From an uncultured Lachnospiraceae bacterium (GTDB taxonomy: Bacteria > Bacillota > Clostridia > Lachnospirales > Lachnospiraceae), in the NCBI GenBank assembly GCA_902463835.1, contig CABQGZ010000001.1, positions 1 to 44,954 of the forward strand: a stretch of DNA of 44,954 nt. Reading direction: 5' to 3'. Below are positions 1 through 30,321 of this stretch, piece by piece. The notes beneath the pieces are model-generated. The model was not told the DNA's origin, made no database searches, and was given only the letters and a program-made list of their open reading frames with translations. The position numbers and the translations under genes are program-made. Positions within the stretch are counted from its first letter, which is position 1. Each line of letters opens with the position of its first letter.

Positions 1-47
1 GTGTAAAATGTGTGTTACAAAACAAAAACAGAACGAGGAGGAAACAA

Positions 48-3000
48 ATGAAGAAACGAATGAAGCGGATAGGCGCACTTTTGTTGTCACTGACACTTTT
101 GGCCGGGATGGCCAATCTGTCTCTGCTGTCCATGCGTGCAGAGGCAGGCGGAAAGATTCAGAAAGAGCTCTATGTGGCGGTGAATGGCGATGACGCAAAC
201 GATGGCAGCAGGGAGAGACCTTTTGCCACGGTGGAGAGAGCCCGCCAGGAAGTGGACAAGATCAACGACGATATGACGGGAGACATCATTGTCAACATTG
301 GCGCGGGGGACTACTACCTGGATACCACCATCGTGCTTGACGAGGGAGACTCCGGTACCAACGGCTATGAGGTCATCTACCGGAGCAGCGATGGCATTGG
401 AAAGGCGAATTTCATCGGCGGAGTGCAGGTCACCGGATGGACATTGGCTGACCAGACCGATGTGGACATCTATGATCTGGATGCATCCCTGCTTGGAAAA
501 GTGTATAAGGTTCAGTTGGATCCAGAACAGTATCAGTTCAATACACTGTATGTAAACGATGTGCGGGCCACGATGGCGAGAACCAGGAACCGTGATAACA
601 ATCCAATGTTTCCCATGGCAAAGGGCGAGTATATGCGGTCCGCAGGCGGGCACAATAACAACAGGAATATGAACTATTATGCAGGAGATATTGATGAAAA
701 ATCACTTGCCGGTATGGTTCATGCCCAGGAAAGAGGCGAGAAAGAGATCGCGCAGGTATTTGTGTGGGATGGAGGAGACTGGGACTGGTTTACCAATACC
801 GTGCCAATCGCGTCTATCAACACCGACAGCCGCGAATTCAAATTCCCGACACCGCCGGAGGATTATCCGGAGAAGTACCGCACGAAATACAACATCGGTA
901 CAGGTGCAAGATATTTCCTGCAGGGAAATCTGGCATTCATGGATGTGGAAGGCGAGTATCATTATAATAAAAGCACAGGGATTCTGTACTATTATCCCAA
1001 GGCGGAGGATGGCGCCATTGAGACACAGACCATTGTGGTGCCCACCATGCAGCAGGTATTGTACTTAAAAGGTGCCGACAAGGAAAATCTGGCGGATGAA
1101 CCGGACCCGGAGAAGCAGGTACACAATATTACCATAGACGGACTTTCTGTCAAGGATACAGAATTCTCAGACTACTTTACCTATTCCTGGAACTGGGGAG
1201 ATGGCGGAGCCGGAATCGGTTATCATCCCAAGGCCTCGGAAGGCAGTACCAATCCGTCTTACTGTGAGAGCTGTGACAGGGAAGAATTCCGTGTAGGTTC
1301 TATCACATTGACAGGAACCCATAATATTACGATCACCAATACGAGAGTGAAGAATTCCGGGTTATACGGAATTATCTATGCAGGTGATAACCAGTATAAT
1401 GTACTGACCAATTCTGTGGTAGAAAGTACCGGATATGGCGGAATCTGCTTCGATGGCGGGTATCCGGGAATCGGAAAATATAACAATCACAATAAGGTAG
1501 AGAATGTACTGATTTATCAGGTGGGAGAACTGGTAGGCCATGCAGTTGGATTTACCCTGATGAGTTCCGGACAGAATAACTTCCGGAATATGGAAATCTA
1601 TGATACTCCCAAGCGAGCCATCCTGGTGATCGGCGGTTACCGCCGGGACTGGAACGGTGCGGACAGCAACTATGATGAGATCAAGGATATGTATACGGTA
1701 GGCAACCATTTTGATTACATTCATGTTCATGACGCACAGCAGGATGCAGGGGAGGACAGTGCGGTGTTCTTAAGCTGGCTTTTAGCCGGAAGAGATGTAA
1801 AGAGGCTGCATGGCTCCAATGATCCCAACAACCTGACCACGAATCTGGAAGGCATTGATACAACCATTGACCGTTACAATTACTTTAATCAGATGCTGAT
1901 TACAGATGTAGGAGCGGATCCGTCTGTAATTGAGAAATGTACGGTAGGCGGTCTGGATACTGCAATGGGAGCCACCGGCAGCTACTTTACGAATATCAAG
2001 GCAGCAAATACCCAGCATCATCTTCTGGCGATTCGTGACCAGTCCCAGGGAGATGGTTACGGTGATATGTATACTTATGAGAACTGTACCAACAACCTGT
2101 ATACGGACGATCTGCTCAAGACCTTTGACGACGACGCGATGGAGTACGACAAGATTGGTCTGACTGCAGATTTCCCGGAAGAATATCGTGTGGCTAAGAG
2201 AGTCTATAAGGATGCACCGGAAAATGTGTATTTCTATGATGATTTTGAGAGCTCCAAGAGTCTTGATGTGAGAAAATGGAGTGTGGAAAAGGGTTCTGTG
2301 GAGATGCATATCGGGTACGGCTATATGTCGGAGAATCCACAGACAGGAAGACGCTCTCTTCCCATCAATGCCGATTTGAATAAGAGCGGTGTTGTGGTAA
2401 GCCGTGAATTTGAGAATTCCTTAAACAAGATTGTAGAGGTTCAGTATCTGGATCGTAGAAAGGATTATGCGAATAATGACCGGGGAGATGCTGTACCTAC
2501 AGAGATTCTGCCCAATTCTTTCCTGAGAGTGGATGACGGAGAGAATGCCCTTGGAATCGGTGCGGTAGGAAGTGTATCCAAGGATTATTATGTGATCAAA
2601 AAGGGAGATGAGCTGATCAAAACAGATGTAAAACGCTGTTTCGGATGGCATACCTTCAAATTTGATTATAGTTCAGGAGACACAGTAAAGCTGTATATAG
2701 ATGATCAACTGATTGCGGAGTACACAGAGGCAGATGGAGTGGCTACCTCCTTTGACTATATCGGAATGGGAGACTGGGAAGGAAAGGGCGGCAAGGCTTT
2801 CTTCGACCAGCTGTATGTATATGGCGGTCAGGAGGCGCCGCCGGTGGAGGATCTTCCCTTGCCCACACCGCCGACAGCACCAGCGGAGGCATTGTTCCAG
2901 GAAGATTTTGAATCAGAGAATATTGCAGAGTTTAAAAAACAGAAAGGCAATGCCACAATTGAATATATTGCAGATCCGGATAAGGAAGAGAACACGGTGA

Positions 3001-4733
3001 TGCATGTGATATCGCCGGATGATTTTGTGTACTATCCGGACGGTTCAGATTGGTCCAACTATACGTTTGAGTGCAGAATTAAGATTGCGAACTGGGGTGT
3101 GAATGGAGCAGCTTATCCGTGGGACAATATGGCTCCGGTATGGAATGCCGGCTCCCAGGACAGCAAAGGAAACTTTAACCGTTATTCTCTGAAATACAGA
3201 AGAGAGTCAAAGGATTTTTCACTGTATCGAAGAGACGGAAGCGATACAGATATGATCTCTGCCGCTGCACCGGATAACTATGGCGGAGTCTGGCACGATT
3301 ATAAGATTATCACAATGGATGGTGTAATCACAGCTTACATTGATGGCGAAAAAATATTTGAACATACCGATTCTGCCAATAGGAACGGAACCGTTGGCTT
3401 TGATGGAATCAGTGTGGAATATTACGTGGATGATATTCGGGTAATGAGACAGAAAACGCCTGATCCTTCTGCTGATAAGGAGGAAGGAACCTACAAGGAG
3501 GCTGTGAAAGTAACATTGACGCCTGGAAGTCTGGGACAGGATATTTTCTATACCCTGGATGGAACAGACCCCACCGATCCGGAGCATGGTGTGTATTACA
3601 TACCAGATGAAGTAATTGTCATCGACAAGACTACTACGCTGAAATTTGCAGCCATTGCAGAGGGGGCGCTGTACAGTGATGTGATTACTGTGCAGTATAC
3701 CATTGAGAACGAGATTGAAGAACCGGAAAAAGTAAATAAATATCTGCTTCAGCAGACCTATGACTATGCAGTGAACTTAAGTACCGAAGGTGTGACGGCC
3801 AGCGCCAAAGCATACTTTGAGAAAGTGCTTGGGGAAGCGAAGGCAGTTCTGGATGATGAAAAGGCTGCCCAGACAGAGGTAAATAAGGCGTGGGACAACC
3901 TGCTGGAAGGCATCTGGGGACTCGGTCTCTACGAGGGCGACAAGGGTGCGCTGAAGGAGTTGATCGATCAGGCAAAAGCCATGGACAAGGGGGATTACGA
4001 GGCAGAGAACTGGGGAATGCTGGAAGCTGCGTTGGCGAAAGCAGAGAAAGTATATGCGGACGAGGATGCTACCCAGGATGTGGTCGACGAGGCAAAGGAA
4101 GAGCTGCAGAAGGCGATAGATGCCCAGGTTCTGAAGGCAATTGTGGATAAGAGCGTGTTAAAGCAGCTGATTGACAAAGCAACAGCAATGCTTCCGGAGG
4201 AAGAACGGTATGTGGCGGACAACTGGCCCAGGCTCATAGCAGGTCTGGAGAATGGACAGAAAGTCTACGACAACGGTGATGCCACCCAGGAAGAGGTGAA
4301 TGTGGCGGCGGAAGAACTGCTGAATGCCATCATTGCACAGCGTTTCAAAGCCAACAAGTCAAATCTGGAAAAGCTGGTGAAGGAAGCAGAAGGAATTAAT
4401 ACGGCACTCTATACAGCTAAGACGGTACAGGTATTCCGGGCAGCGCTTGCCAATGCGAAGGCGGTTCTGGCGGATGCGAGCCTGAGTCAGGATGAGCAGT
4501 CAGAGGTAGACAAGGCGGAAAAAGAGCTGAATGACGCTATCAAAGGACTGGTAAAGGAAGCTGTGGATGACAAAGATAAGGATACTGATGATACCAATAA
4601 CGGAAGCAACACCAATTCCACTGCTCCGAAGACAGGAGATCCATTCAACACAATACCATGGTTGGTTCTTCTGCTTGCGGCAATGGGAGCTGCTGCGGCG
4701 GCTGTAATTAAAAGAAAGAGAGAAATGGAATAG
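48..4733 (+). CDS. Giant surface protein A (1561 aa): signal peptide, N-terminal right-handed beta-helix (pectate-lyase fold) putative glycan-cleaving domain, LamG/DUF1080-like jelly rolls, CHB_HEX_C-like Ig domain, 4 FIVAR-like helical repeats, APKTG sortase signal
   Basis: Uninterrupted ORF 12..4733. GGAGG at 36-40 lies 7 nt before ATG 48. N-terminus MKKRMKRIGALLLSLTLLAGMANLSLLSMRAEA looks like a signal peptide. 'ELYVAVNGDDANDGSRERPFATVERAR...GDYYL' and 'LYVNDVRATMARTRN' are typical of the N-cap of beta-helix glycan-active enzymes. 'IFYTLDGTDPTD...TTTLKFAA' is CHB_HEX_C-like. The C-terminus is APKTGD, then a hydrophobic stretch, then KRKRE. Confidence 0.9.
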   Translation: MKKRMKRIGALLLSLTLLAGMANLSLLSMRAEAGGKIQKELYVAVNGDDANDGSRERPFATVERARQEVDKINDDMTGDIIVNIGAGDYYLDTTIVLDEGDSGTNGYEVIYRSSDGIGKANFIGGVQVTGWTLADQTDVDIYDLDASLLGKVYKVQLDPEQYQFNTLYVNDVRATMARTRNRDNNPMFPMAKGEYMRSAGGHNNNRNMNYYAGDIDEKSLAGMVHAQERGEKEIAQVFVWDGGDWDWFTNTVPIASINTDSREFKFPTPPEDYPEKYRTKYNIGTGARYFLQGNLAFMDVEGEYHYNKSTGILYYYPKAEDGAIETQTIVVPTMQQVLYLKGADKENLADEPDPEKQVHNITIDGLSVKDTEFSDYFTYSWNWGDGGAGIGYHPKASEGSTNPSYCESCDREEFRVGSITLTGTHNITITNTRVKNSGLYGIIYAGDNQYNVLTNSVVESTGYGGICFDGGYPGIGKYNNHNKVENVLIYQVGELVGHAVGFTLMSSGQNNFRNMEIYDTPKRAILVIGGYRRDWNGADSNYDEIKDMYTVGNHFDYIHVHDAQQDAGEDSAVFLSWLLAGRDVKRLHGSNDPNNLTTNLEGIDTTIDRYNYFNQMLITDVGADPSVIEKCTVGGLDTAMGATGSYFTNIKAANTQHHLLAIRDQSQGDGYGDMYTYENCTNNLYTDDLLKTFDDDAMEYDKIGLTADFPEEYRVAKRVYKDAPENVYFYDDFESSKSLDVRKWSVEKGSVEMHIGYGYMSENPQTGRRSLPINADLNKSGVVVSREFENSLNKIVEVQYLDRRKDYANNDRGDAVPTEILPNSFLRVDDGENALGIGAVGSVSKDYYVIKKGDELIKTDVKRCFGWHTFKFDYSSGDTVKLYIDDQLIAEYTEADGVATSFDYIGMGDWEGKGGKAFFDQLYVYGGQEAPPVEDLPLPTPPTAPAEALFQEDFESENIAEFKKQKGNATIEYIADPDKEENTVMHVISPDDFVYYPDGSDWSNYTFECRIKIANWGVNGAAYPWDNMAPVWNAGSQDSKGNFNRYSLKYRRESKDFSLYRRDGSDTDMISAAAPDNYGGVWHDYKIITMDGVITAYIDGEKIFEHTDSANRNGTVGFDGISVEYYVDDIRVMRQKTPDPSADKEEGTYKEAVKVTLTPGSLGQDIFYTLDGTDPTDPEHGVYYIPDEVIVIDKTTTLKFAAIAEGALYSDVITVQYTIENEIEEPEKVNKYLLQQTYDYAVNLSTEGVTASAKAYFEKVLGEAKAVLDDEKAAQTEVNKAWDNLLEGIWGLGLYEGDKGALKELIDQAKAMDKGDYEAENWGMLEAALAKAEKVYADEDATQDVVDEAKEELQKAIDAQVLKAIVDKSVLKQLIDKATAMLPEEERYVADNWPRLIAGLENGQKVYDNGDATQEEVNVAAEELLNAIIAQRFKANKSNLEKLVKEAEGINTALYTAKTVQVFRAALANAKAVLADASLSQDEQSEVDKAEKELNDAIKGLVKEAVDDKDKDTDDTNNGSNTNSTAPKTGDPFNTIPWLVLLLAAMGAAAAAVIKRKREME
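3729..4557 (+). repeat. C-terminal stalk cassette, copy 1 (four ~68-aa FIVAR-like three-helix repeats)
   Basis: KVNKYLLQQTYDYAV...AWDNLLEGIWGLG / GALKELIDQAKAM... / KSVLKQLIDKATAM... / FKANKSNLEKLVKEAEG...ELNDAIKGLVKE. Clearly homologous at DNA level to 10922..11752 and 17498..18328. Confidence 0.8.
4623..4733 (+). other. Cell-wall sorting signal: APKTG motif, hydrophobic segment, basic tail
   Basis: APKTGDPFNTIPWLVLLLAAMGAAAAAVIKRKREME at the extreme C-terminus. Confidence 0.75.
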
Positions 4734-4987: not shown

Positions 4988-5992
4988 ATGACACCAAGAA
5001 AATTAGTTTATGCAACATTAGAATTTTGCAACAAAAGCGAGCGGGCGCCGCGGCAGATGTGGACGCTTCCCTGGGCGGAGTGGAACCACGGGGATATGGT
5101 GGCCAGGATTCGGCAGGATTATCCAGACGATATTATAGGAGCGCCCTGTATCCTGCAGACGCCCACCATAGAGGAGGGAGATCCCTATCGCACCGGAGTC
5201 AGCCGGGATGCCTGGGGGTGCATCGTGACCAACATTCACCAGGGAGTCATCGGCGAGGTAAAAGAGGCGTTGGTACAGGATGAGGATTGGGAGGATGTAA
5301 CCAATGTCCATATTCCAAGGGAATGGCTGAGCTTTGACCGGGATGCGGTGAATGGTTTTTGCCGGGATACAGATCGATTCGTGACCTGCGGCTGTTGCCC
5401 GCGGCCTTTCGAACAGCTGCAGTTTATCCGGAAGACGGAGGAGCTGTATATGGATCTGATGGATATTCCAGAAAAGCTGAGAGTGTTTATGGGTGAGGTG
5501 CATACATTTTACTGTGAGCTCTTAGAAGAATGGGCCAAAACAGAGGTGGACGCCTTAACCTTCATGGATGACTGGGGCGCGCAGAAAAGTCTGCTGATTC
5601 ATCCGAATCTGTGGCGGGAGTTGTTCCGGCCCATGTATAAGGACTATATTGATATCGCAAAGCGCCACGGGAAGAAGATATTCATGCATTCAGACGGATA
5701 TATTCTGGATATACTTCCGGATCTGGCTGAAATGGGACTGGACGCCATTAATTCACAGATCTTCTGTATGGGTGTGGAGAAGCTGGAGCCTTTGGCAGGG
5801 AAGATTACCTTCTGGGGCGAGATGGATCGGCAGCATCTGCTGGTGGAAGGCACCAAAGAGGATATTCAGAAAGCAGTGGAGAAGGTGAGAGAAACCCTGT
5901 GGAAGGACGGCGGATGCATTGCGCAGTGCGAGTTTGGACCGGGGGCAAAGCCGGAGAATGTGTATGAGGTATTCCGTTCGTGGAATAAATAA
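4988..5992 (+). CDS. Uroporphyrinogen-decarboxylase (URO-D)/MtaA-like family protein 1, cytoplasmic
   Basis: 334-aa ORF. GAGGAG lies ~8 nt upstream of ATG 4988 (the ATG at 4984 hits a stop after 2 codons). No signal peptide. Paralogous to 30322..31296 and 31326..32354. 'IFMHSDGYILDILPDLAEMGLDAINS' matches the URO-D-fold 'H-x-[DC]-G...G.D' barrel strand. Confidence 0.8.
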   Translation: MTPRKLVYATLEFCNKSERAPRQMWTLPWAEWNHGDMVARIRQDYPDDIIGAPCILQTPTIEEGDPYRTGVSRDAWGCIVTNIHQGVIGEVKEALVQDEDWEDVTNVHIPREWLSFDRDAVNGFCRDTDRFVTCGCCPRPFEQLQFIRKTEELYMDLMDIPEKLRVFMGEVHTFYCELLEEWAKTEVDALTFMDDWGAQKSLLIHPNLWRELFRPMYKDYIDIAKRHGKKIFMHSDGYILDILPDLAEMGLDAINSQIFCMGVEKLEPLAGKITFWGEMDRQHLLVEGTKEDIQKAVEKVRETLWKDGGCIAQCEFGPGAKPENVYEVFRSWNK

Positions 5993-6157: not shown

Positions 6158-9100
6158 ATGAAAAAACGAATGAGAAGGTTGGCAGCATTGGCGCTATCCG
6201 CAGTACTGGTATTGTCGTCATCTGGTATTCCGGGAAAAACCTTTGCAGCGGATCCAAAGACAGCAGGAAGGATACAGGCAGAGTTCTTTGTGTCGCCGGA
6301 TGGAGACGATGCGAACGACGGCTCGTACGAAAAACCCTTTGCCACGATCAAGGCGGCAAAGGAAGCCGTGCAGAAGATCAACGGCAATATGACCGGGGAT
6401 ATCTATGTATTTCTTGACAGTGGTCAGTATTATATGGAGGATACCCTGGTATTTGGCGAGAAGGATTCCGGAACAAACGGCTACAAGATTGTGTACCGGA
6501 ACCTGGATGAGGTTGGCTCGGCGGAGCTGATCGGCGGGCAGAAGGTGACATCCAAGTGGGAGCTGGTGGATGCTTCCGGCGACCCGGCTGTGGATGCGGA
6601 CGCGGATCTTCCGGCATCGGCGGAGGGAAAGGTATACAAGACTCATGTGGGAACGGATGTGGATTTCAATACCCTCTATGTCAACGATGAGAGGGCAACC
6701 CTGGCAAGAACACAGAATCGTGCCAATGAAAACGGGTTTGATTCGGCGCTGACACCCTATATGCGTTCCGCAGGCGGCGGAGTGGGAGATCTTGTTTACA
6801 AAGCCGGCGATCTGGATGAGGATTCCATCAATGGTATGGTCAACGCTCAGAAGCGGGGTGATCTGAATGCATCGGTATATATGTGGGACGGCGGATATTG
6901 GGATTGGATGACAGACACCATTCCGGTTTCAGCTATTGATGTGAATGCCCGCAGACTTACATATAAGACCGTGGCGGGACATCCGGAGATCTATCGCCCC
7001 AAATATGCCACCAGAAATAATGCCAGATATTTTGTGCAGGGCAATCTGGGTTTCCTGGATGTGCCAGGAGAATATTATTTCAATGAGGTGACCGGTGATC
7101 TCTACTATTATCCGGAAGGGAATATCGAGGATCAGGAGATCGTGATTCCGTATGTAAAGGAAATCATCCGGGTTGAGGGTACATCGAGAGACAGCATGGT
7201 GGAAAACATCGAGTTCAGCGGAATCACCGTGAAGGATGCGGATCATACGGAATGGTATGCATATGGCTGGAACTGGGGAGATGCAGGAGATGGACTTGGT
7301 TTCTATCCCAAGGAGGCGGAAGGAAGTACACAGCCCTCTTACTGTGAGCAGACGGAGCGGATTGAGTTCCAGTATGGAAATATTACATTGAAAAATACGA
7401 GGAATATCGCCATCACAAAAACAAGAATTAAAAATTCCGGTATGTTTGGAATCGAGCTGTATCTGGCCAACCAGAATGCACGGATAGAAGATTGTATGAT
7501 CGAATATACGGCACATGGCGGAATCAACGTGGATGGCGGATATCCAGGCGTTGCAGGCGATGCCAACGGCGACGGGTACTCCAGAGACAATGTGATCCGC
7601 AATTGTATCGTTCATGATATTGGAGAACTGGTAGGACAGGCATCCGGAATCACGATTCAGCAGTCCAGCTACAATACCGTATCTCATGTGGAGGTATACA
7701 ACTCTCCCAGAAGAGGACTTTTCCTGACTGCCGGACACAGTCGTAACGGAGGAACCGCATTCCCCAATGGCGATAAGAATTACAATCCCATGACGGAATT
7801 GTACACCCATCACAATACCATTGAATACGCATATCTCCATGACTGTCAGCAGGATGGCGGAGATGATGGGGCGTTCTTTGCCTGCTATCTGTGGAAAGGG
7901 AAAAATAACAAGCCCAACTACGTGAATCAGATGGTGATTGAGAACGTTGCGGCTAATCCCAGCATGACAGATATTGCGCCCAACGGAATTAATCTGGATA
8001 TGGGTGCTTCCGGCATGGAACTGAGCAATGTGAAGGTTGTGAATCCCCAGCACTTTAATATAGAAGTAAATACCATCACACAGTACGGGGACAGCATTAA
8101 GTTTGACAATGTGAACGTAGACTTTGGCAAGCACACAAACCATTTGAAATCCTTCGATGATTCCAGAATGGAATACGATAAGATTGGTGTTACCGCAGAC
8201 TTCCCTTCAGAATTCCAACAGGGACAGGACGAGAGAGAAGAACTCGATGACATTTATTTTTCCGAAGATTTTGAGAATGGTATTGATTATAACAAGTGGT
8301 CTGCAAAGGGCAATCCCGAGATTACGACAGAGTGGATGTCAGAAGGCGTTCTGGGCGGACGTCAGGCGCTTATGATCAACAGCGACAGCGGAAAGCCAGT
8401 ATTATATCGCGAATTTGCCGAAAGTCTGAATAAAGTGGTGACCATGAAGCTGTTTGATCGGGCCGGCTTTAATATCTGCTCCTACGATTCCGGCGTCAGT
8501 ATCAACGTCAATATCACAACCTACGGGCGTGTGGATGACGGAGAGCATGCAGTTGGTATGGGAATCGATAACGCCATTGGCGGCGGAAGCAACGGCGTGT
8601 ACGTACTGCAGATTGGTGATGAGAAGATTAAGACAGATATCGGACGCTTCTTCGGATGGCATGAATTGAAATGGGATTATTCCAGTGGAACAGACGTGAA
8701 GCTGTATTTTGACGGAAAGCTGGTGAAGACTCTGACCGAGGCGGATGGCGTGAGCACTTCCTTCGACTATGTTGCAATGGGAAGTGAAGCCGGAAGCGGT
8801 GTCACCTTCTTTGATGAATTGACGATCTACGGCGGCAGGGAAGCGGGCGATCCCGGAAGCGTTGCGCTGCCACAGATTCCGGAATATGACAGCTCCAACG
8901 ACAACAAGGAGCAGCTGTTCCTTGATTTTGAGGATGGACAGCTTCCGGAATTCTATTTTACATCCAATGATCCGAACCGCGTATCACAGGCAATTGAGGA
9001 GGAAGCTGGTAATAAGGTGCTGAAGCACTACAGCGGAGATGGTCATGCCTTCTATCAGACCAACGCGGAGTGGGATAACTATCTGGTGAATTTCAAATGG

Positions 9101-11908
9101 AAATTTGGCGGATGGGGAGATGTGAATGTACTGGATTATGCGTACGATAACTTTACCATCTACGTGATGACCACCTCGGACGGAAGCACAAAGCAGAACA
9201 ATAACCCGTGCGCATATCAGGTAGTATATCGCCGCAATAAGAATGGTGCGGGAGAGGGATTCCCGGCGGGAACACCGTATTTTGAGATTTGTAAGCATAC
9301 GCCTTCCTCTGACTCCAGTCTGGGCAAGGTAGCATTGCCGGAAGGCTTCAACGATCAGGAATGGCATGACTTCCAGATTCAGACTTTTGACGGCAAGGTA
9401 GGCTTTGTGATCGATGGAACGCCGCTGCTCTCCATTGATGACGGACAGTACACTCACGGCGGAATCGGTTTTGGCGGAATCAACAGCACCTGCTATCTGG
9501 ACAACATCCAGATCATCACAAATCCTGTTTCCAACGCGGAGCTCTCTCTTGATTTTGAGGACGGACAGCTTCCGGAATTCTACTTTACATCGGATGATGT
9601 GAACAGAGTGACACAGGCAATTGCGGAAGAAGATGGAAATAAGATTCTGAAGCATTACAGCGGAGATGGTCATGCATTCTACCAGACCAACGCATCGTGG
9701 GAGAATTATCTGGTGAACTTCAAGTGGAAATTCGGCGGATGGGGCAATGTAAATGTACTGAACTATGCGTACGATAATTTTACCATCTATGTGATGACCA
9801 CTTCGGATGGAAGCACAAAGCAGAATAATAACCCGCCTGCGTATCAGGTGGTATATCGCCGAAATAAGAATGGCGCGGGAGAAGGATTCCCGGCGGGAAC
9901 ACCGTATTTTGAGATCTGCAAGCATACACCCAGCTCGGATTCCAGCCTGGGCAAGATAGCATTGCCGGAGGGCTTCAATGATCAGGAATGGCATGATTTC
10001 CAGATTCAGACCTTTGACGGCAAGGTAGGCTTCGTGGTGGATGGAGTGACGCTGCTTTCCGCAGATGACGGACAGTACACCCACGGCGGAATCGGATTTG
10101 GCGGAATCAACAGCACCTGTTATCTGGATGATATTGAGATTATAACAAACCCGTCCTATGTGACATATGACAAGAAGCTTGGACTTACGAATATAGAGAT
10201 GAACGGCGTGTTCAATCCGAATTACTATGACTACTATGTGGCGGTGAAGGATACGGCAAAAGACGTTACCTTCAAGATGCCGCGGGTGACAGCCGCAGGT
10301 GTGAAGCTTACGGCAACGATTAATGGAGAAGCCATCACGGATATGAAAAATGCTGTTACGCTGGAGCTTCGAAACGGAATCAATGAACTGGTGATCACGG
10401 AAGGCGCGGCAGCAGGCGACAAGGTCTATCGGGTAAAGATTCACAAAGCCATGAAGGTAAGCGGAACGGAAGCCATATCGGCAGTGATCACAGAGACTGG
10501 TGTGGAGCCAAAGCTTCCGGCGACCGTGAACGTGACCTTTGCGGACGGAAGCACACAGGAGACCGCTATCAATTGGAAGCGTGTACATCCTTCTATGTAT
10601 AAAAAGAACGTGACCTTTACCGCAAAGGGAAGTCTGGATGGGTTCGCGTATGAGGTTGAGACCACGGTTGAGGTCCAAGGCTTGGAAAGCGTGGATAGAC
10701 TTTCGGAGATTACAACAAAGGCAGGAACCGCACCGGTATTGCCGGAGACGGTTACCGCTCGCTATTCCGACGGGGATCGCGCACTGGCACTGACCTTTGC
10801 AGAGATGGATTCCAAACTGTATGAAAATGCAGGAACTGTGGTGTGTGTGGCACAGGCGGAAGGTTATACAGGCGTTGTACTTCAGATTGTAAAAGTAGAG
10901 GCGGATGAGCCAGTTGTAAAACCGGTGAATAAGTATCTGCTCCAGCGCACCTATGATTATGCGGTAACCTTGAGCACGGATGGTGTGGTGGAAAGCGCAA
11001 AGGCATACTTTGAGAATACGCTGGCAGCTGCAAAAGCAGTTCTGGAGGATGAGAATGCCACGCAGGCACAGGTAGACGAGGCATGGGACAACCTGCTGGA
11101 CGGAATCTGGGGACTTGGCATCTACAAGGGTGACAAGGGCGCATTGAAAGAACTGATCGATCAGGCCAACGCCATGAACAAGGACGATTACGAGGCAGAG
11201 AACTGGGGCATGCTGGAGGACGCATTGGCAGAGGCTCAGGCAGTATATGCGGACGAGGATGCTACACAGGATGTGGTTGACGTGGCAAGGGAAGAACTGC
11301 AAAAGGCGATAGATGCGCAGGTATTGAAGCCGGTTGTGGATAAGAGCATATTGAAGCAGCTGATCGATAAGGCTATCGCTATGCTTCCGGAAGAAGCAAG
11401 ATACGTAGCGGAGAATTGGCCAAAGCTTGTGGAATCCCTGGAAAAAGGACAGAGCGTATACGAGAATGACGCTGCTACCCAGGAGGAAGTGAATGCGGCG
11501 GCGGATGAACTGTTAAATGCAATCATAGCACAGCGATTTAAGGCCAATAAGTCAAATCTGGAAAAATTGGTGAAAGAAGCGGAAGGAATTGACACCGCCT
11601 GCTATACGGAAGAGACCGTAAGTGTATTCAGAGCCGCGCTTGCAAATGCAAAGATCGTATTGGCGGACGAGACCTTGTCAGAAAACGATCAGAAGATCGT
11701 GGATGATGCGGCAAAGGTATTGGCAGATGCGAAAGCTGCATTGAAAGAGAAAACCAGTACAGATGACGGCGCCAAGAATGAAAACACTGGAAATGATTCG
11801 CCGAAGACAGGAGACACAATGCCGATCGCATTGTGGATGATGCTGGCAATGCTTGCGTTTGCCATGACAGGAGCTGCGGCAAGACGCATGGCGAAGAATA
11901 AGAAATAG
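6158..11908 (+). CDS. Giant surface protein B (1916 aa), paralog of A: signal peptide, beta-helix domain, LamG-like module, two tandem DUF1080/LamG-like modules, cadherin-like and two Big_4-like Ig domains, 4 FIVAR-like repeats, SPKTG sortase signal
   Basis: Uninterrupted ORF. MKKRMRRLAALALSAVLVLSSSGIPGKTFAADP looks like a signal peptide. 'EFFVSPDGDDANDGSYEKPFATIKAAKEAV' and 'LYVNDERATLARTQN' are collinear with protein A. 'LPATVNVTFADGSTQETAINW' and 'LPETVTARYSDGDRALALTF' are Big_4-like. The C-terminus is SPKTGD, then a TM segment, then RRMAKNKK. Confidence 0.9.
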   Translation: MKKRMRRLAALALSAVLVLSSSGIPGKTFAADPKTAGRIQAEFFVSPDGDDANDGSYEKPFATIKAAKEAVQKINGNMTGDIYVFLDSGQYYMEDTLVFGEKDSGTNGYKIVYRNLDEVGSAELIGGQKVTSKWELVDASGDPAVDADADLPASAEGKVYKTHVGTDVDFNTLYVNDERATLARTQNRANENGFDSALTPYMRSAGGGVGDLVYKAGDLDEDSINGMVNAQKRGDLNASVYMWDGGYWDWMTDTIPVSAIDVNARRLTYKTVAGHPEIYRPKYATRNNARYFVQGNLGFLDVPGEYYFNEVTGDLYYYPEGNIEDQEIVIPYVKEIIRVEGTSRDSMVENIEFSGITVKDADHTEWYAYGWNWGDAGDGLGFYPKEAEGSTQPSYCEQTERIEFQYGNITLKNTRNIAITKTRIKNSGMFGIELYLANQNARIEDCMIEYTAHGGINVDGGYPGVAGDANGDGYSRDNVIRNCIVHDIGELVGQASGITIQQSSYNTVSHVEVYNSPRRGLFLTAGHSRNGGTAFPNGDKNYNPMTELYTHHNTIEYAYLHDCQQDGGDDGAFFACYLWKGKNNKPNYVNQMVIENVAANPSMTDIAPNGINLDMGASGMELSNVKVVNPQHFNIEVNTITQYGDSIKFDNVNVDFGKHTNHLKSFDDSRMEYDKIGVTADFPSEFQQGQDEREELDDIYFSEDFENGIDYNKWSAKGNPEITTEWMSEGVLGGRQALMINSDSGKPVLYREFAESLNKVVTMKLFDRAGFNICSYDSGVSINVNITTYGRVDDGEHAVGMGIDNAIGGGSNGVYVLQIGDEKIKTDIGRFFGWHELKWDYSSGTDVKLYFDGKLVKTLTEADGVSTSFDYVAMGSEAGSGVTFFDELTIYGGREAGDPGSVALPQIPEYDSSNDNKEQLFLDFEDGQLPEFYFTSNDPNRVSQAIEEEAGNKVLKHYSGDGHAFYQTNAEWDNYLVNFKWKFGGWGDVNVLDYAYDNFTIYVMTTSDGSTKQNNNPCAYQVVYRRNKNGAGEGFPAGTPYFEICKHTPSSDSSLGKVALPEGFNDQEWHDFQIQTFDGKVGFVIDGTPLLSIDDGQYTHGGIGFGGINSTCYLDNIQIITNPVSNAELSLDFEDGQLPEFYFTSDDVNRVTQAIAEEDGNKILKHYSGDGHAFYQTNASWENYLVNFKWKFGGWGNVNVLNYAYDNFTIYVMTTSDGSTKQNNNPPAYQVVYRRNKNGAGEGFPAGTPYFEICKHTPSSDSSLGKIALPEGFNDQEWHDFQIQTFDGKVGFVVDGVTLLSADDGQYTHGGIGFGGINSTCYLDDIEIITNPSYVTYDKKLGLTNIEMNGVFNPNYYDYYVAVKDTAKDVTFKMPRVTAAGVKLTATINGEAITDMKNAVTLELRNGINELVITEGAAAGDKVYRVKIHKAMKVSGTEAISAVITETGVEPKLPATVNVTFADGSTQETAINWKRVHPSMYKKNVTFTAKGSLDGFAYEVETTVEVQGLESVDRLSEITTKAGTAPVLPETVTARYSDGDRALALTFAEMDSKLYENAGTVVCVAQAEGYTGVVLQIVKVEADEPVVKPVNKYLLQRTYDYAVTLSTDGVVESAKAYFENTLAAAKAVLEDENATQAQVDEAWDNLLDGIWGLGIYKGDKGALKELIDQANAMNKDDYEAENWGMLEDALAEAQAVYADEDATQDVVDVAREELQKAIDAQVLKPVVDKSILKQLIDKAIAMLPEEARYVAENWPKLVESLEKGQSVYENDAATQEEVNAAADELLNAIIAQRFKANKSNLEKLVKEAEGIDTACYTEETVSVFRAALANAKIVLADETLSENDQKIVDDAAKVLADAKAALKEKTSTDDGAKNENTGNDSPKTGDTMPIALWMMLAMLAFAMTGAAARRMAKNKK
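8921..10153 (+). repeat. In-frame tandem duplication: two 606-bp units (8921..9526 and 9548..10153, 627-bp period), each encoding a 202-aa DUF1080/LamG-like jelly-roll module
   Basis: Both units start CTTGATTTTGAGGA(T/C)GGACAGCTTCCGGAATTCTA and end ATCACAAATCCT / ATAACAAACCCG. My manual protein alignment shows about 18 substitutions in 202 residues. Many DNA differences are third-position changes. Confidence 0.9.
10922..11752 (+). repeat. C-terminal stalk cassette, copy 2 (4 FIVAR-like repeats)
   Basis: PVNKYLLQRTYDYAV...FKANKSNLEKLVKEAEG...LADAKAALKEK. Long near-identical DNA runs are shared with copy 3, e.g. GCTGCAAAAGGCGATAGATGCGCAGGTATT. Confidence 0.8.
11798..11908 (+). other. Cell-wall sorting signal: SPKTG motif, hydrophobic segment, basic tail
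   Basis: SPKTGDTMPIALWMMLAMLAFAMTGAAARRMAKNKK. Confidence 0.75.
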
Positions 11909-11926
11909 AAGATGCGCAAAAGAGAA

Positions 11927-11954
11927 GAAGGGGGCATCTGTGGATGTCTCTTTC
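11927..11954 (+). terminator. Intercistronic RNA hairpin between genes B and C (12-bp stem with three G-U pairs); weak terminator, attenuator or processing site
   Basis: GAAGGGGGCATC (11927-11938), TGTG loop, GATGTCTCTTTC (11943-11954). The three wobble positions are G-U only in the + strand transcript. CCGGCATTTTCC follows. Confidence 0.3.
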
Positions 11955-11986
11955 CCGGCATTTTCCATAGAAAGGAAGGGAAGTAA

Positions 11987-14900
11987 ATGAACAGAAAATG
12001 GAAGCGAATGACAGCATGTGCTTTGGCAGCAGTGGTGGCGGCAACGTCCTTTGGGATTCCCGGAGCGAAAAAGGAGGCGGAGGCGGCATATACAACCGGA
12101 AATGCCCCCTATATCAACACATGGCTTGTAGCAGGCCCCTCGGACACATCTGTAACAGATGCGATATACGAGGATGTGGCAGCGCCGGTAGAACGACCGG
12201 AGGACGGCAACTGGGCCCGGGTGGCAAAGGTGTCTGCCACCTCCTCATGGCAGAACGGCCCGTACAGTTATCCGGATCGGACCGACAGCCCCTCCGCGAA
12301 AAACAATGTGGACAAGGCTGTGGATGGAGACAAGAATACCTGCTGGCTTGCCCAGATGCATGATGCGGAAGGAGCACCGGAGAGTTGGCCCAAATGGGAT
12401 CCGGCTCCCACCTACTATCTGGAATGGAAGACACCCATCCAGGTGAAGACCGTAGAATTTTTTGACCGCTATGATTCCGGATGGGGGGATCGCCATATTT
12501 CTGAGATTGAAGAGGTAAAGGTTACATTAAAAAATGCAAAGGATGAGGTGCTGGCGGAACAGACCGTCACGGACATCAACCACAAGGGGGAGACCCCGGG
12601 AGTTGCCGCGTTTGATACGGCAGTGCAGGATGTCAGCAAAATAGAACTCCTCATCGTGCACGATGGAGTGAAGGATTTGCGGAATGTGGGTCTTGGATTC
12701 AGTGAGATCAACGTTTTCGACGGAGAAAAAACGGAGGAACCGGGACAGGGTGAGGATCCGGAGGGGACAAAGCTGGAAGTCTCTTCGGCTTCGGCATCCA
12801 CGACACTTTCCGGGAGCAGTGCTTCCTATGCGGTTGACGGAGACATGGATACGGCGTGGAAGTCGGACACCCGGCAGGGAATTGTGTGGGACGACGCTTT
12901 GACCTTGACACTGGATCTGGCGGAAGTGGCGCAGATTACGCAGATTAAGATCAATGGATTTGAGCGCGACAACAAGCAGCTCAACGTGACATATACGCTG
13001 CTTGATGAGGATGGTGCGCCCATCAAGGAAGTGTCGCAGAGCAGTATCGTGAATACAGACTTTACAGCAACCGCCATCACCAAGGCCTATAACGTGAAAA
13101 CCGTGAAGGCCAAGATTCGGGAGACCGGCGGGGCACCCAACCATCTTGGAATCAAAGAGATTGAGGTGTATGGGATAGCTGGAAAAACAGAAGCTCCTGA
13201 GGAGCCGGAGGAAGAGCCTGCGATTCAGATCAGCCCCAAATTGGGAGATACATTCGGAGACGCCAGGTGGGAGTACTTCGATGACCGAATCTTTAACCGC
13301 AACCTGGATGACTGGCAGGATCTGTACGGCTATTACACGGTGAAAAAGGGAATCTCCACGGAGAATAAATATGTGTATGCCCACACCTATGTGTACAGCC
13401 CGAAGAAACAGACGGTGAATTTGCGGATGGTTACCTCTGGTCTTCACAAAGTGTATGTGAACGATAAGCTGGTACATCAGAATGATACCGCGGTGGAGTC
13501 CTCCAACAAGGATCAGTACAGACAGAGTGTTACCTTAAAGGAAGGCTGGAACAAGCTTCTGATAGAGGTGCAGCATACGAGAGTACATTATCTGGGATTC
13601 TACGCAAGACTGTGTGACAAGGATGGCAATGAGGTGAAGGATCTGATTTACTCTGTGATGGGGGATCAGGAGGAGAGCCTTCAGATTGTGACCCAGGGAC
13701 TGGACATTGACAGGACGGCGTTCGAGGAGCGCAACCAGGAGATACCTTCGAATATGTATCCGGAGAATGAACTCCCCTATGGATATACCCAGTGGCCCTA
13801 CGTATGGAACAAGCCCATTCACAGGACAAACAACTGGGCGCCCCAGGCATCCGGATTCCGCTTCCAGGCGGCAGGCGGAGCTCCCGCGTACACCTGGGAG
13901 ATTGTGGAAGGCCAGCTGCCGGATGGACTCACCATGGATGACAATGGTGTGTTGGATGGTTATTGCGAGACGGCTGGAGAGTATCCCTTTACCTTACAGG
14001 TGACAGACGCAGAAGGAAGAACAGCCACAAAGACCACGAAGATTGTGGTGAAGGAGCGTCCCAACAAATGGTTTGAAGAGGGCAAAATGTCCGCTCTGTC
14101 CCATGACACCGGCGCATATGCACAGTTCTATGATGAAAACTTCTCCTATGATCTGTGGGCGGAGCGTGCGAAAAAAGCAGGAATGACATTGCTATCCACG
14201 GAGGCGCTGCAGGCTGTTTACTATTGGCCGGGGCCGGGGGCAACCAATGCGAATCTGCAGCATCCATACACATTGGAGGAAGTGGACGGAAAGCTTCAGC
14301 CCAAGGATATGGTGAAGCTAGCCAAGGAAGCGGCAGAGAGGCATGGACTGCGCTTTGGCGTGTACTATGCCTCGGAAGGCTCCAACCGGCTTCCTAACGG
14401 ACATACCAACAATTCCAGCGGATTCTTTGCCAATGTGGAAGATCTGATGAAGCGTTATGATCCGTCATATCTGTTCTTTGACGGCGGTCCCCAGGGAAAG
14501 GGAAATGTAGATGCCATGTGGAGCGCAGTGCGTGCTTACAACGATTACGCCTTGATCCAGGCAAATGACCAAAATGAGGCTGGCGACAACGATCTGACGA
14601 TCCTGGAGACAGAGTATACTGGAAAGATGCCCTACGTGCACGGCGGATACTGGGAGACCAACATGCTGAATCAGAATAAGTATACGGTGGAGGAAGCGTG
14701 GACCCATCCGTTCTTCCAGGAGATCGGTGTCTGGGCACAGTACGCAGGCGGCAATATGCGTGATGACTGGCGGCTGTTTGCAGAATATATTATTTATTCC
14801 ATCGGCCATGGTATCGTGCCGAACTATGACCAGATGATCGTCAATACCCGCGGCGTCAACTGGAGCGGAATCGGTTTTGCCGCCGGATCGAAAGACGAAT

Positions 14901-17900
14901 ACTATTATCTGCCCCTGAACGCGCAGCAGATGATCGACATGCGTGACAAGGTGAACGCATGGATGGCAAACGAAGGAAAACCGGATCTTCATGAATCTTT
15001 GTTTGGAACAATGCCCTACTACTTTGACACCTATGAGAAGAAGGCAGGGTGGCACGAAAATACAGAAAAGGAACCTTTCCTGACAGCAAAATACGGAGAG
15101 GGTCCGGACTGGGGCTACACCGTTGCCCGGAATCAGTACATCTACATGCACATGCAGGAGAACACCATGGGCGCCGGCAGAGCCAAGGTAGGATTTACGG
15201 GCCAGGAAAGTATGGAAGTGGGACCCTTTACAGACAAGGTGTTGCACGTAGAATGGCTAAACGAGGGCAGGGAGCTGGGCTTTACCACAAGCACAAGAGA
15301 CGGAAAGAATTATATTACCATTGACACATCAGCGGTGAAAGCAGATCCGGTGGATACGATCATCAAGATCACAACGGACAGCGACAAACGTGACTTTACG
15401 CTCACCAGTGTAAAATTGTTCGGCGAGCAGACGAAGACAACAGAGCTTCAGCTGCGGGCAGAGGCTTATCTGAAGACTTATACAAATGTGTTTGCCCCGG
15501 CGCAGCTCACCTATACAAGCAGTAACACCAACGTGGCCAAGGTAGATGCCAACGGCCTTGTGACGCCGGTGGGAGCGGGAAAGGCGACGATCCAGGTTGT
15601 GGCAGAATACGAAGGCGTGCAGGCGTCCGATACCTATGCGGTGAAGGTGGACGCAGCTGGAAATATCTCTGTAGATGAGGAACTCATCGGCGTTGTGATG
15701 CGGACAGCCGGAAAAGAAACCTTCGGTAAGTTCTCTACCAATAAGAATCTTCCGATCACCTTTGAGGCGCGTACCGAAAAGGGCGGCGGCGTGAATGTCT
15801 TGTCCTATGACGATGTGACCTACCACTATGCAGTGTGTTATGGTCAGAAAGACGGGCATGTGGCGGAAGCGGACGGTTACTGGAAGGATCATGAGGTGGA
15901 CAATCTGAACGGCTTGCTGAAGATCATAGAGGATGAGGTTGTATTTAACGGCGTCATTCCAGAGGAAGAGAATGTAGCGATCTGGGCGGATATCACCATT
16001 GATGGAAAGACCTACACAACCAATAAGAACTTCTTAAGGCTGGTGCGTTCCGGCGTGCTCAATGAGAATATCGTTCCGGAGGTGAGCAGCAACGAAGCAG
16101 ATGCCGCAGCGGTAACAGATGGTATCTTAAACAGTGCGGATGGCGGCAACACCTCAAGATGGACGCCGGATCAGAGAGATCAGAATCCGACCATGACCTT
16201 TGAACTGGAGAAAGAATATACCGTGGATGGCGTGCGTGTATTCTATAACAACAAGGACAGAAAATATCTGAATACACCAAAGGAAATTCAGATTGAGATC
16301 AGCAGTGATAACAAAGAGTGGACAACCGTTGTAGAGGCGGGAGGTGTTCCATCGGCCAGCACCATCTATTGTTACGAGGACGAGAAGTATACATACGATG
16401 TAAATGCAAAGGCAAAATACGTGCGCGTCACTTTCCCGGAAGGTGCGGCGGACAGTGTAATGGATATCTTGGAAGTACAGATCCTGGGTGTAGATCTTGC
16501 GGCTGTGTTGAGCGAGATTGAGGTGACGAAGACGCCAGGCGCGGACGGCAAGGAGCTTGCCCTGGAGGTTACCGGCTATACGGGACAGGGCGAAGTACTG
16601 GATCTGACAGACGGAACTGTCACCATTACAAGCGACAACCAGGCGGTTGCTACAGTGAATGGAAACACCGTGAAGGCGGCAGGCCAAGGAACGGCTAAGA
16701 TCACAGTGCAGGCAAGCCTGAGTGGTTTTGAGGCGTCCCAGGTATTTTATGTGAAGGTAGGGGAAGACGGCGGACTTGTTCTGACGGACTACCTGAAATC
16801 CATCGCTGTGTCACTGGATAGCACCATACTGGACAATGGAGCGCACAATAAGATCAAGGCGGACATCAGCGGCAAATGGAATACCGGAGAAGCAGTGGAT
16901 CTGTCCGGGGCCAAGATCACATGTGAGTGCAGCAGTGAGAAGCTCACATATAATGCCGCGGATGGCACGATCACAGTGAAGGGAACCATCGATACAAATG
17001 AGATGGCAACAGTGAGATTCACAGTGACAGTAGACGGCGTTGCTTTGGAGAGCCAGAACTTTGACCTTGCCCTTGTTGCAAGTACCTTCAACGTTCCTGG
17101 AAGAATTGAAGCTGAGGATGGAATCATCGAAGGCGAGCGTGTCCGTGGAGAGTCAGGTGACGGCGGAACAGCTCTGGGATATATCATGGAAGGCGACGTG
17201 TATACTTACTTCGTGAATGTGGAAGAAGCAGGCGTCTATGAGGTATACTATCGTGCGGTGGCAGAGCAGATGGATAAGAGGATTCGTTTCTATGTCAACG
17301 GCGAGCTCCAGGGCAATATGAGATTCACTGAGGCTGGCGACTGGACTACCTTCACCACGCAGAAGCAGGAAGATCTTGTTCAGCTGAAAAATGGTCTTAA
17401 CATCATCACACTGAAGCCCCAGGGCGGCGGTTATATCTGTAACCTGAACTGGTTGGAGTTTGTGAAGGTTGCGGACATCGAAGAACCGGTGGAAGACCCG
17501 GCGAATAAGTATCTGCTGCAGCGCACCTATGACTATGCGGTGACCCTGAATACAGACGGTGTGGCAGAGAGCGCAAAAGCATACTTTGAGAAGACGCTTG
17601 CGGAAGCTAAAGCCGTTCTTGAGAATGAGAAAGCAACTCAGGATCAGGTAAATGCGGCATGGGACAACCTGCTTGACGGAATCTGGAGCCTTGGCATCTA
17701 TAAAGGTGAAAAGGGTGCATTGAAAGAGCTGATCGATCAGGCGAAGGCCATGAATAAGGACGATTACGAAGTTGAAAACTGGGGGATGCTGGAGGAGGCA
17801 TTGGCCAAAGCCGAGGCGGTATATGCAGATGAAGATGCTACCCAGGATATAGTGGATGCAGCGAAAGAGGAGCTGCAAAAGGCGATAGATGCGCAGGTAT

Positions 17901-18497: not shown

Positions 18498-18523
18498 GAG
18501 GGGCTCTGCATGAACAGCCCCTC
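18498..18523 (+). terminator. Intercistronic hairpin between genes C and D (8-bp GC-rich stem, no U-tract)
   Basis: GAGGGGCT (18498-18505) pairs with AGCCCCTC (18516-18523) around a 10-nt loop that contains the ATG at 18510. Confidence 0.3.
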
Positions 18524-18557
18524 TCCTGTACCTTCCCAGAAATGGAGGAATATAGCT

Positions 18558-30261: not shown

Positions 30262-30282
30262 ATGAAAATGAAATTATTCGTC

Positions 30283-30310
30283 AGAGAGTGCATTTATGCA
30301 CTCTCTTTTA
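30283..30310 (+). terminator. Perfect 10-bp hairpin with a short T-run between gene E and the downstream operon (partial terminator or attenuator)
   Basis: AGAGAGTGCA (30283-30292), TTTA loop, TGCACTCTCT (30297-30306), then TTTA. The AAGGAG RBS of the next gene follows immediately. Confidence 0.5.
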
Positions 30311-30321
30311 AGGAGCTTATC

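Follow-up and report, generated by a model that had tools for sequence, protein, structure and literature searches.

Wall-attachment or scaffold modules that are common to unrelated heads are known from Alp/Rib chimeras, choline-binding repeats, cellulosomal dockerins and SLH triplets, and these modules are mosaic and closer to each other within genomes than between them. Arrays of FIVAR units form rods in Embp and Ebh (PMC7587433), and the sorting signal SPKTG is a motif that Clostridium difficile SrtB has been found experimentally to cleave in vitro; APKTG lies outside the motif set tested in that work (PMC4155245). Here we describe a cassette that joins FIVAR units to an [SA]PKTG signal at the C-terminus of five giant proteins encoded in a 44,954-nucleotide stretch of DNA (the window, meaning the whole of the stretch analysed) from an uncultured Lachnospiraceae bacterium (NCBI GenBank assembly GCA_902463835.1, contig CABQGZ010000001.1, positions 1 to 44,954). 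We consider it likely that this cassette is a surface-display module in genome-wide use, that its history and that of the heads it carries are uncoupled, and that it was exchanged between genes long ago, the copies having since diverged under purifying selection.

Five large open reading frames (ORFs) on the + strand, named G1-G5, lie in series in the window, and all five tails consist of three or four FIVAR three-helix units, an acidic low-complexity linker, [SA]PKTG, a membrane helix and a K/R tail, the motif being followed in each of the five proteins by about 20 hydrophobic residues and then by K/R residues. The Pfam FIVAR profile (PF07554) matches every one of them above its cut-off (37.4-80 bits against 29.2; E-values from 4e-9 to 2e-22; one to four stretches per protein), and unit boundaries were set with a unit hidden Markov model (HMM) built from the window copies. 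The tails start at nucleotides 3735, 10928, 17504, 24312 and 29431 in G1-G5, respectively. G1-G3 have four units (A, B, C and D), and G4 and G5 have three (A, C and D), without unit B ('GALKELIDQ'); the sorting motif is APKTG in G1, G4 and G5 and SPKTG in G2 and G3. Unit A of G4 is divergent and reads 'KLLGLLEQVYNKA' at the start of the tail, and G5 combines a unit A of the G1-G3 type with units C and D of the type found in G4 and in a copy on another contig (C137). An earlier note on this DNA had described five such cassettes, and they are real, with its coordinates falling within about 6 nt of the unit-HMM blocks; its repeat counts (four in copies 1-3, three in copies 4-5, which lack one unit) and the (S/A)PKTG ending of all five copies are likewise confirmed, and its common opening, 'NKYLLQ.TYDYA', holds for every copy except that of G4. 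The genes and their parts are as follows, with the evidence in brackets.

12 to 4733, + strand: G1, ORF (ORF list)
12 to 3734, + strand: G1 head, with putative signal peptide, beta-helix/GH141-like region, 3-keto-disaccharide-hydrolase/LamG-like domain and CHB_HEX_C_1 (domain search)
3735 to 4562, + strand: G1 FIVAR block, units A, B, C, D (Pfam FIVAR E=2e-22, unit HMM)
4563 to 4733, + strand: G1 low-complexity linker, APKTG (4623-4637), hydrophobic helix, K/R tail and stop
6158 to 11908, + strand: G2, ORF (ORF list)
6158 to 10927, + strand: G2 head, with beta-helix/GH141-like region, two LamG-like modules, cadherin-like domain and two Big_4 (domain search, blastp)
10928 to 11755, + strand: G2 FIVAR block, units A, B, C, D (Pfam, unit HMM, AlphaFold2)
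11756 to 11908, + strand: G2 linker, SPKTG (11798-11812), membrane helix, K/R tail and stop (sequence, AlphaFold2)
11987 to 18481, + strand: G3, ORF (ORF list)
11987 to 17503, + strand: G3 head, with F5/8-type-C domains, He_PIG, Big_2 and CBM-like modules (domain search, blastp)
17504 to 18331, + strand: G3 FIVAR block, units A, B, C, D, the closest copy to that of G2 (Pfam, unit HMM)
18332 to 18481, + strand: G3 linker, SPKTG (18368-18382), membrane helix, K/R tail and stop
18510 to 25145, + strand: G4, ORF (ORF list)
18510 to 24314, + strand: G4 head, with F5/8-type-C, DUF7402, weak alpha-L-fucosidase match and Big_4 (domain search, blastp)
24315 to 24938, + strand: G4 FIVAR block, units A, C, D, with divergent A (Pfam, unit HMM)
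24939 to 25145, + strand: G4 linker, APKTG (25032-25046), membrane helix, K/R tail and stop
25417 to 30261, + strand: G5, ORF (ORF list)
25417 to 29430, + strand: G5 head, with F5/8-type-C, Listeria-Bacteroides repeats and Rcc01698_C-like domain (domain search, blastp)
29431 to 30051, + strand: G5 FIVAR block, units A, C, D (Pfam, unit HMM, MaxChi)
30052 to 30261, + strand: G5 linker, APKTG (30139-30153), membrane helix, K/R tail and stop

At the protein level the heads of G1 and G2 are 40% identical and those of G3 and G4 33% (blastp), and no homology was found by blastp between any other pair of heads in G1-G5, the G5 head being unlike the other four. Judged by their sequences, G1/G2 and G3/G4 are true whole-gene paralog pairs; the G3 and G4 heads carry F5/8-type-C domains plus a fucosidase-like region, and the core of the G5 head is unclassified. 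Tail-to-tail matches are far beyond chance (E-values from 1e-38 to 1e-155), and the two kinds of similarity do not run in parallel: G2 and G3, with unrelated heads, have the most similar tails (79% identical protein, 78% at the nucleotide level), and G3 and G4, with homologous heads, have tails of four and three units that are 45% identical. The tails of G1-G2 and G1-G3 are 71% and 68% identical as protein, and pairs that include G4 or G5 reach 44-54%. Hence the modular design of a 'head on a common stalk', which the earlier note had proposed, holds, with unrelated heads on closely similar tails. At the DNA level the tails of G1-G3 are 70-78% identical among themselves and the remaining pairs 55-62%; the best 90-nt windows between window tails reach 84-89% identity, and the longest exact match between any two is 29 nt, so that the long near-identical DNA runs attributed to copies 1-3 do not exist. 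The anchor of G4, DSAPIALWGMTALL, is nearer to the G3 and G2 anchors, DTAPMALWGMIAML, than is the rest of the G4 tail (24990-25130 against 18330-18475), a 90-nt window being 64% identical to G3 as against 40-48% for most other pairs; a maximum-chi-square scan on the codon alignment (MaxChi) gave p=0.08 here, which is not significant.

The history of tails and heads can be compared through orthologs. A syntenic locus in another organism (L039, a single 24.7-kb stretch of NCBI GCA_048363215.1) holds O2, O1 and O5, the orthologs of G2, G1 and G5, plus a GH141-like gene, Ox; the best match of O2, O1 and O5 in the source genome is in each case the expected partner (blastp identity 80%, 63% and 59%, respectively). 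The gene order there is G2-like, Ox, AraC, G1-like, G5-like, with no G3 or G4 orthologs within the stretch examined, and a DDE transposase gene (19825-20334) overlaps O5 at its 3' end. In a congener (G002, locus L070 on contig G002:C158), the G2-like gene precedes the G1-like gene, the reverse of the order in the window; the G1 ortholog (7980-12833) runs off the contig end and has a second 3-keto-disaccharide-hydrolase/LamG-like module (residues 1252-1476 against 962-1171 of G1, 47%). The G2 ortholog of this congener is referred to as R2.

Tails of paralogs in one genome resemble each other more closely than do tails of orthologs from different genomes, and this pattern is seen in the identity matrix, in the approximately unbiased (AU) topology tests and in nonsynonymous divergence (dN). 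Heads of orthologs are 71% (G1-O1), 65% (G5-O5) and 72-75% (G2-R2) identical, and the corresponding tails 52-56%, 46-50% and 35-44%; the tails of L039 compared with one another reach 66% (Ox-O1), 62% (Ox-O5) and 53% (O1-O5). The AU tests, made on units A, C and D aligned for 18 tails, reject a clade of the G1 and O1 tails (p=1e-4) and one of the G5 and O5 tails (p=0.006), and do not reject a single clade of the three L039 tails (p=0.45). The concatenated tail tree is poorly resolved (3 of its 15 branches are starred), as expected for mosaics, and we therefore rely on the AU tests and on trees of individual units. Between orthologs, dN is higher in tails (0.37-0.54) than in heads (0.17-0.27), and between paralogs it is far lower in tails (0.11-0.21) than in heads (0.48-0.52); a uniformly slow tail cannot explain both. 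On the combined evidence of these comparisons, the history of the cassette is uncoupled from the history of the heads.

The number of units tells the same story at the boundary of the cassette. G2 orthologs, with heads 72-80% identical, have four FIVAR units here, two in the congener G002, where R2 ends with a KPKTG motif, and none in L039, where a second Big_4 in O2 is followed by a G/N/D-rich linker that leads straight into PVETG and a membrane helix. Homology among the G2 orthologs breaks off past the last Big_4, precisely at the short E/P-rich linker that leads into unit A. O1 has an extra upstream FIVAR unit and then A, C and D, as compared with A, B, C and D in its ortholog G1. The earlier note would have given up its proposal if the cassette phylogeny had mirrored that of the heads with no excess identity, and if related strains had no structural variants at cassette boundaries. 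Neither of these applies: the cassettes do not follow the heads, and the boundary variants on the G2 orthologs are plain, though they lie between species and not between strains.

Individual units have different affinities within the same tail. By unit identity the tails form four subfamilies: I (G1, G2 and G3), II (seven copies on contigs C22, C67, C192, C555 and C697), III (G4, G5 and copies on C137 and C861) and IV (copies on C142, C470, C708 and C982). The trees of units C and D join subfamilies I and II (support 99/98 and 98/97) and reject a grouping of subfamily I with G5, O1 and Ox (p=2e-4 and 0.01), a grouping that unit A favours, weakly. MaxChi places one breakpoint midway through unit D in G1 (p<5e-4), to the left of which the tail is G2-like (110:37 informative sites) and to the right G5-like (32:54), and another at the end of unit A of G5 (p<5e-4; 58:14 sites before, 97:93 after). 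The Ox tail in L039 is O1-like in unit A (77-82% of nucleotides) and O5-like in unit D and the anchor (81-95%), its longest exact run with O5 being 45 nt. Read from these trees and breakpoints, the tails are mosaics at the scale of single units.

The module is not specific to the locus in the window. The source genome (G000) is a metagenome-assembled genome (MAG) of 5.3 Mb in 1220 contigs, 79% complete and, by the contig name in ENA, at about 4x coverage, of which the window is contig C1, and the cassette lies at the C-terminus of at least 19 of its ORFs on 13 contigs, with heads that vary from GH101-like and GH2 to CBM-rich and others. The statement that the cassette is repeated five times is thus right for the window and too low for the genome. 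Five of the copies are cut by contig ends, as repeats would be, and this is equally expected from low coverage. Mis-binning was considered as the source of the many copies and rejected, the GC and tetranucleotide composition of the cassette contigs being within the spread of the bin. Forty ORFs of the genome end in a sortase-type signal, with [SA]PKTG in 23 of the 40; these signals are mostly APKTG or SPKTG and some are LPQTG or MPQTG, and about ten [SA]PKTG proteins have no FIVAR units. In one cassette at a contig edge (G000:C22:53-871, loci L009/L052), an in-frame TGA separates unit D from the anchor; a pseudogene, an error of sequencing or an artefact of assembly could each explain it.

Beyond this genome, at least 561 proteins match the G2 tail at E<=1e-10 (8000 candidates scored, from a collection of 5.8 billion proteins). 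In other gut Clostridia the matched proteins combine diverse glycosidase heads with three to six FIVAR units and a lineage-specific motif (such as VPQTG, PAATG or PSETG), and within those lineages unrelated heads share tails at 80-92% identity. Among congeners the cassette is rare: of 11 congeneric species genomes searched with its profile, two have one or two copies and nine have none, as compared with at least 19 here; a further genus of the family gives weaker matches. Most congeners have smaller genomes. Scanning genome contigs for the cassette added two distant loci, in C. methylpentosum and in a Lachnospiraceae MAG, which match at 33-35% identity and were of no use for ortholog tests, and the whole G3 protein has no match at E<=1e-20 in 30 related species genomes.

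Although the tails of a genome resemble each other, their synonymous sites indicate that the exchange is old. Synonymous divergence (dS) is 1.16 between the tails of G2 and G3, 1.36 between those of G1 and G2 and 1.5 between those of G1 and G3, with identities at four-fold degenerate sites of 0.55, 0.46 and 0.37, respectively, against a within-genome background of 0.27-0.42; the ortholog heads are at or beyond saturation (dS 2.1 for G2-R2 and 3.5 for G1-R1). The longest exact run of cassette DNA in the whole genome is 56 nt. In subfamily II, unit D is 84-96% identical as protein and only about 80% as DNA, and this excess of protein over DNA identity indicates purifying selection on the protein and not recent conversion. 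Near-identical DNA tracts with low dS between window paralogs, the mark of ongoing homogenisation, were not found. RecA-dependent exchange requires tens of identical bases and drops steeply with divergence, so that window repeats differing by 22-45% are poor substrates for homologous recombination. Judging from these distances, the cassettes of G1-G3 probably have a common origin that is old but more recent than the separation from the sampled congeners.

Over 26.5 kb the window is collinear with the only other available assembly of the locus (L041), with two base differences, and in this single comparison no deletion or fusion between cassettes was seen. The two differences, at positions 18268 and 18273 (5 nt apart, in unit D of G3), give HKS in the window and QKI in the ENA contigs L041 and L042, which are mutually identical; QKI is the state of G2 and the one kept in most cassettes. 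A micro-conversion at these positions was considered and rejected, since Q..I is conserved in most cassettes, which makes the window state a derived one or an error. In metagenome contigs, no match was obtained for an exact 32-nt pattern taken from just upstream of the G2 cassette.

To account for these observations, we propose that genes of the lineage that are not orthologs exchanged whole cassettes and single FIVAR units, by gain, loss or replacement, through non-allelic recombination or domain shuffling; the case for such exchange in the past is good. Exchange within a lineage brings tails nearer to other tails of the same genome than to those of their orthologs. After the exchange, the copies diverged strongly at synonymous sites, the protein being held by purifying selection, and they are probably not undergoing homogenisation now; we place the exchange in the past because window tails are 55-78% identical in DNA, share no exact run beyond 29 nt and have a dS of 1.2-1.5. 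Present-day concerted evolution, in which gene conversion homogenises the five repeats and the repeats mediate deletions and fusions that re-assort heads and stalks, was the process favoured by the earlier note, and we find it improbable. It would fit the grouping of tails by genome and not by ortholog, the position of the most similar tails in the adjacent G2 and G3, whose four-fold identity exceeds the background, the likeness of Ox and O5 in unit D and the anchor (dS 0.67), the several MAG contigs that break inside cassettes, and the two-base assembly difference that matches the G2 state. However, the DNA identities, short exact runs and dS values of the window tails speak against it, recombination through RecA is known to fall steeply with divergence, and the second assembly is collinear; moreover, the variant at 18268/18273 is better read as the ancestral Q..I common to most cassettes, and coverage of about 4x would also be expected to break contigs. 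Deletion between two direct cassettes would remove a gene instead of swapping its head. As a whole, the observation made in the earlier note is partly confirmed and its interpretation partly supported.

At the opposite extreme, tails and heads might have descended together by whole-gene duplication, with no exchange, the tails looking alike through slower evolution. The two whole-gene paralog pairs of the window follow this pattern, as do three genes of subfamily IV (on C142, C708 and C982) that are homologous in heads and tails, but G2/G3, G5 and most subfamily II genes share tails without detectable head homology, tails of orthologs evolve faster than their heads, the AU tests reject clades of ortholog tails, and unit number varies among orthologs. 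Descent without exchange is already contradicted by these results, and we regard it as very improbable. Even less credible, in our judgement, is convergence or co-adaptation, by which tails of one genome would have become alike to fit one sortase, wall polymer or partner without shared DNA ancestry. Selection is indeed strong, as the protein and DNA identities of subfamily II indicate, and anchor motifs are lineage-specific ([SA]PKTG here; VPQTG, PAATG and PSETG elsewhere). Yet the similarity runs over about 300 collinear residues, non-contact positions included, identity at synonymous sites is above background (0.55 for G2-G3, 0.76 for Ox-O5), and convergence would not yield collinear DNA alignments of 750-1000 nt at 78-82% identity. 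A common DNA origin of same-genome tails can largely be seen already.

Several points weigh against the proposal of an old, genome-wide exchange of a display module. Relative dating is rough, because synonymous sites are near saturation (dS of 1.2-1.5 in tails and at least 2.1 in ortholog heads), and a shared codon bias raises four-fold identity within a genome. Only two comparator genomes, one of them represented by the L039 stretch, yielded orthologs, and the groups compared in the unit trees and by MaxChi were picked after the identity matrices had been seen. In a low-coverage MAG with five contig-cut copies, closer, collapsed copies may sit unseen. A Foldseek search with the model of the four-unit G2 tail gave no significant match (best E=0.027, with low TM-scores), the query being a four-domain model without fixed geometry between domains. 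Finally, the stalk function and the cleavage by sortase, above all at APKTG, are inferred.

With these reservations, the predicted structure agrees with a display role for the exchanged module. In an AlphaFold2 model the G2 tail forms 12 helices, that is, four three-helix bundles of about 70 residues each, as expected of FIVAR units, with a predicted local distance difference test (pLDDT) score of 85-97 (about 90); residues 275-299, around SPKTG, are disordered and residues 300-325 helical. The predicted template-modelling (pTM) score of 0.42 implies no fixed arrangement among the bundles and fits independent beads on a string. A profile of the tail sequence matches the FIVAR structure of C. 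perfringens NagH (2jnk/2ozn, E=0.0022), and the Foldseek list, non-significant throughout, has EbhA (2dgj) and Embp (6gv8) among its top entries and also contains NagH (2ozn/2jnk), StrH, EndoE and EngBF. The genome has 12 sortase-domain genes (PF04203 matches above cut-off), and the N-termini of G1-G5, as read in the translations, are signal-like, with a basic N-region and a hydrophobic core as well as an A-x-A-like site. A sortase of the SrtB type would cut at [SA]PKTG and join the protein to peptidoglycan, and the chain of FIVAR bundles would act as a spacer of roughly 10 nm that keeps the glycan-degrading head beyond the wall; the FIVAR units may also have a role in binding.

Going further than the exchange itself, we put forward tentatively, as a less probable reading, that the cassette is a lineage-specific 'tail set', and that most sortase-displayed enzymes are episodically re-tailed with the locally prevailing variant, with a recent burst in this lineage. 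If this were so, unit-scale tracts would be spread across many unlinked genes, and the type of tail would mark the genome and not the enzyme; the drivers might be co-adaptation to the sortase or cell envelope of the lineage, or pressure from phages or host immunity, and the at least 19 copies here against 0-2 in congeners would reflect a burst alongside the expansion of surface glycosidases.

Whether or not tails are replaced in bursts, an exchanged display module has consequences for how such genomes are read. A gut Clostridium would build a large wall-displayed, glycan-degrading set by moving one stalk-anchor module among unrelated heads, and the locus offers a clean, testable case in which the history of a bacterial module is decoupled from that of the genes. 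For annotation, the last 250-330 residues of such giants are uninformative on enzyme specificity and can mislead homology searches and orthology calls, and the cassettes break short-read assemblies. For engineering, they are a natural display cassette, with 0, 2, 3 or 4 units, for tuning the distance between enzyme and wall.

Two other features of the locus deserve mention. The most similar DNA repeats of the window, above any pair of cassettes, are a tandem duplication inside G2 (8905-9831, period 627 nt) that covers its two LamG-like modules at 86-88% nucleotide identity. Three genes of the URO-D family (4988-5992, 30262-31296 and 31326-32354) are interleaved with the surface-enzyme genes, and the syntenic locus L039 also has one (23136-24149).

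The cassette is a module of a known kind, the pairing of a FIVAR array with a sortase signal that surface glycosidases carry, and not a new kind of system. Like the FIVAR arrays of Ebh in S. aureus and Embp in S. epidermidis, it consists of tandem three-helix units of about 70 amino acids that form elongated rods in those proteins (PMC7587433). Here, however, there are only three or four units, they lie at the extreme C-terminus beside the sorting signal, and they are carried by enzymes and not adhesins; GA modules are absent, the Foldseek matches of the fold are non-significant (E >=0.027), and no binding to fibronectin or the like is implied. Similar in architecture are C. perfringens NagH and NagJ (2ozn, 2jnk), S. 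pneumoniae StrH, the EngBF/LnbB-type enzymes of B. bifidum and E. faecalis EndoE and HylA, in which a multi-domain glycan-degrading head is likewise combined with FIVAR bundles near the C-terminus. The modules of NagH and NagJ end in dockerins and not in sorting signals, and StrH, the EngBF/LnbB-type enzymes and EndoE/HylA use LPXTG in place of [SA]PKTG. To our knowledge, no single genome of those species has been described in which at least 19 enzymes share subfamilies of the same cassette. The anchor resembles that of the C. difficile SrtB substrates, whose signals are of the form (S/P)PXTG, in having a D after SPKTG and then a hydrophobic segment and a basic tail (PMC4155245); three of the five window proteins carry APKTG instead, and the substrates here are giant glycosidase-like proteins. 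In comparison with the Alp/Rib, choline-binding, dockerin and SLH modules, the FIVAR fold and the anchoring chemistry differ, and the exchange here is old (dS >1) and not visibly ongoing.

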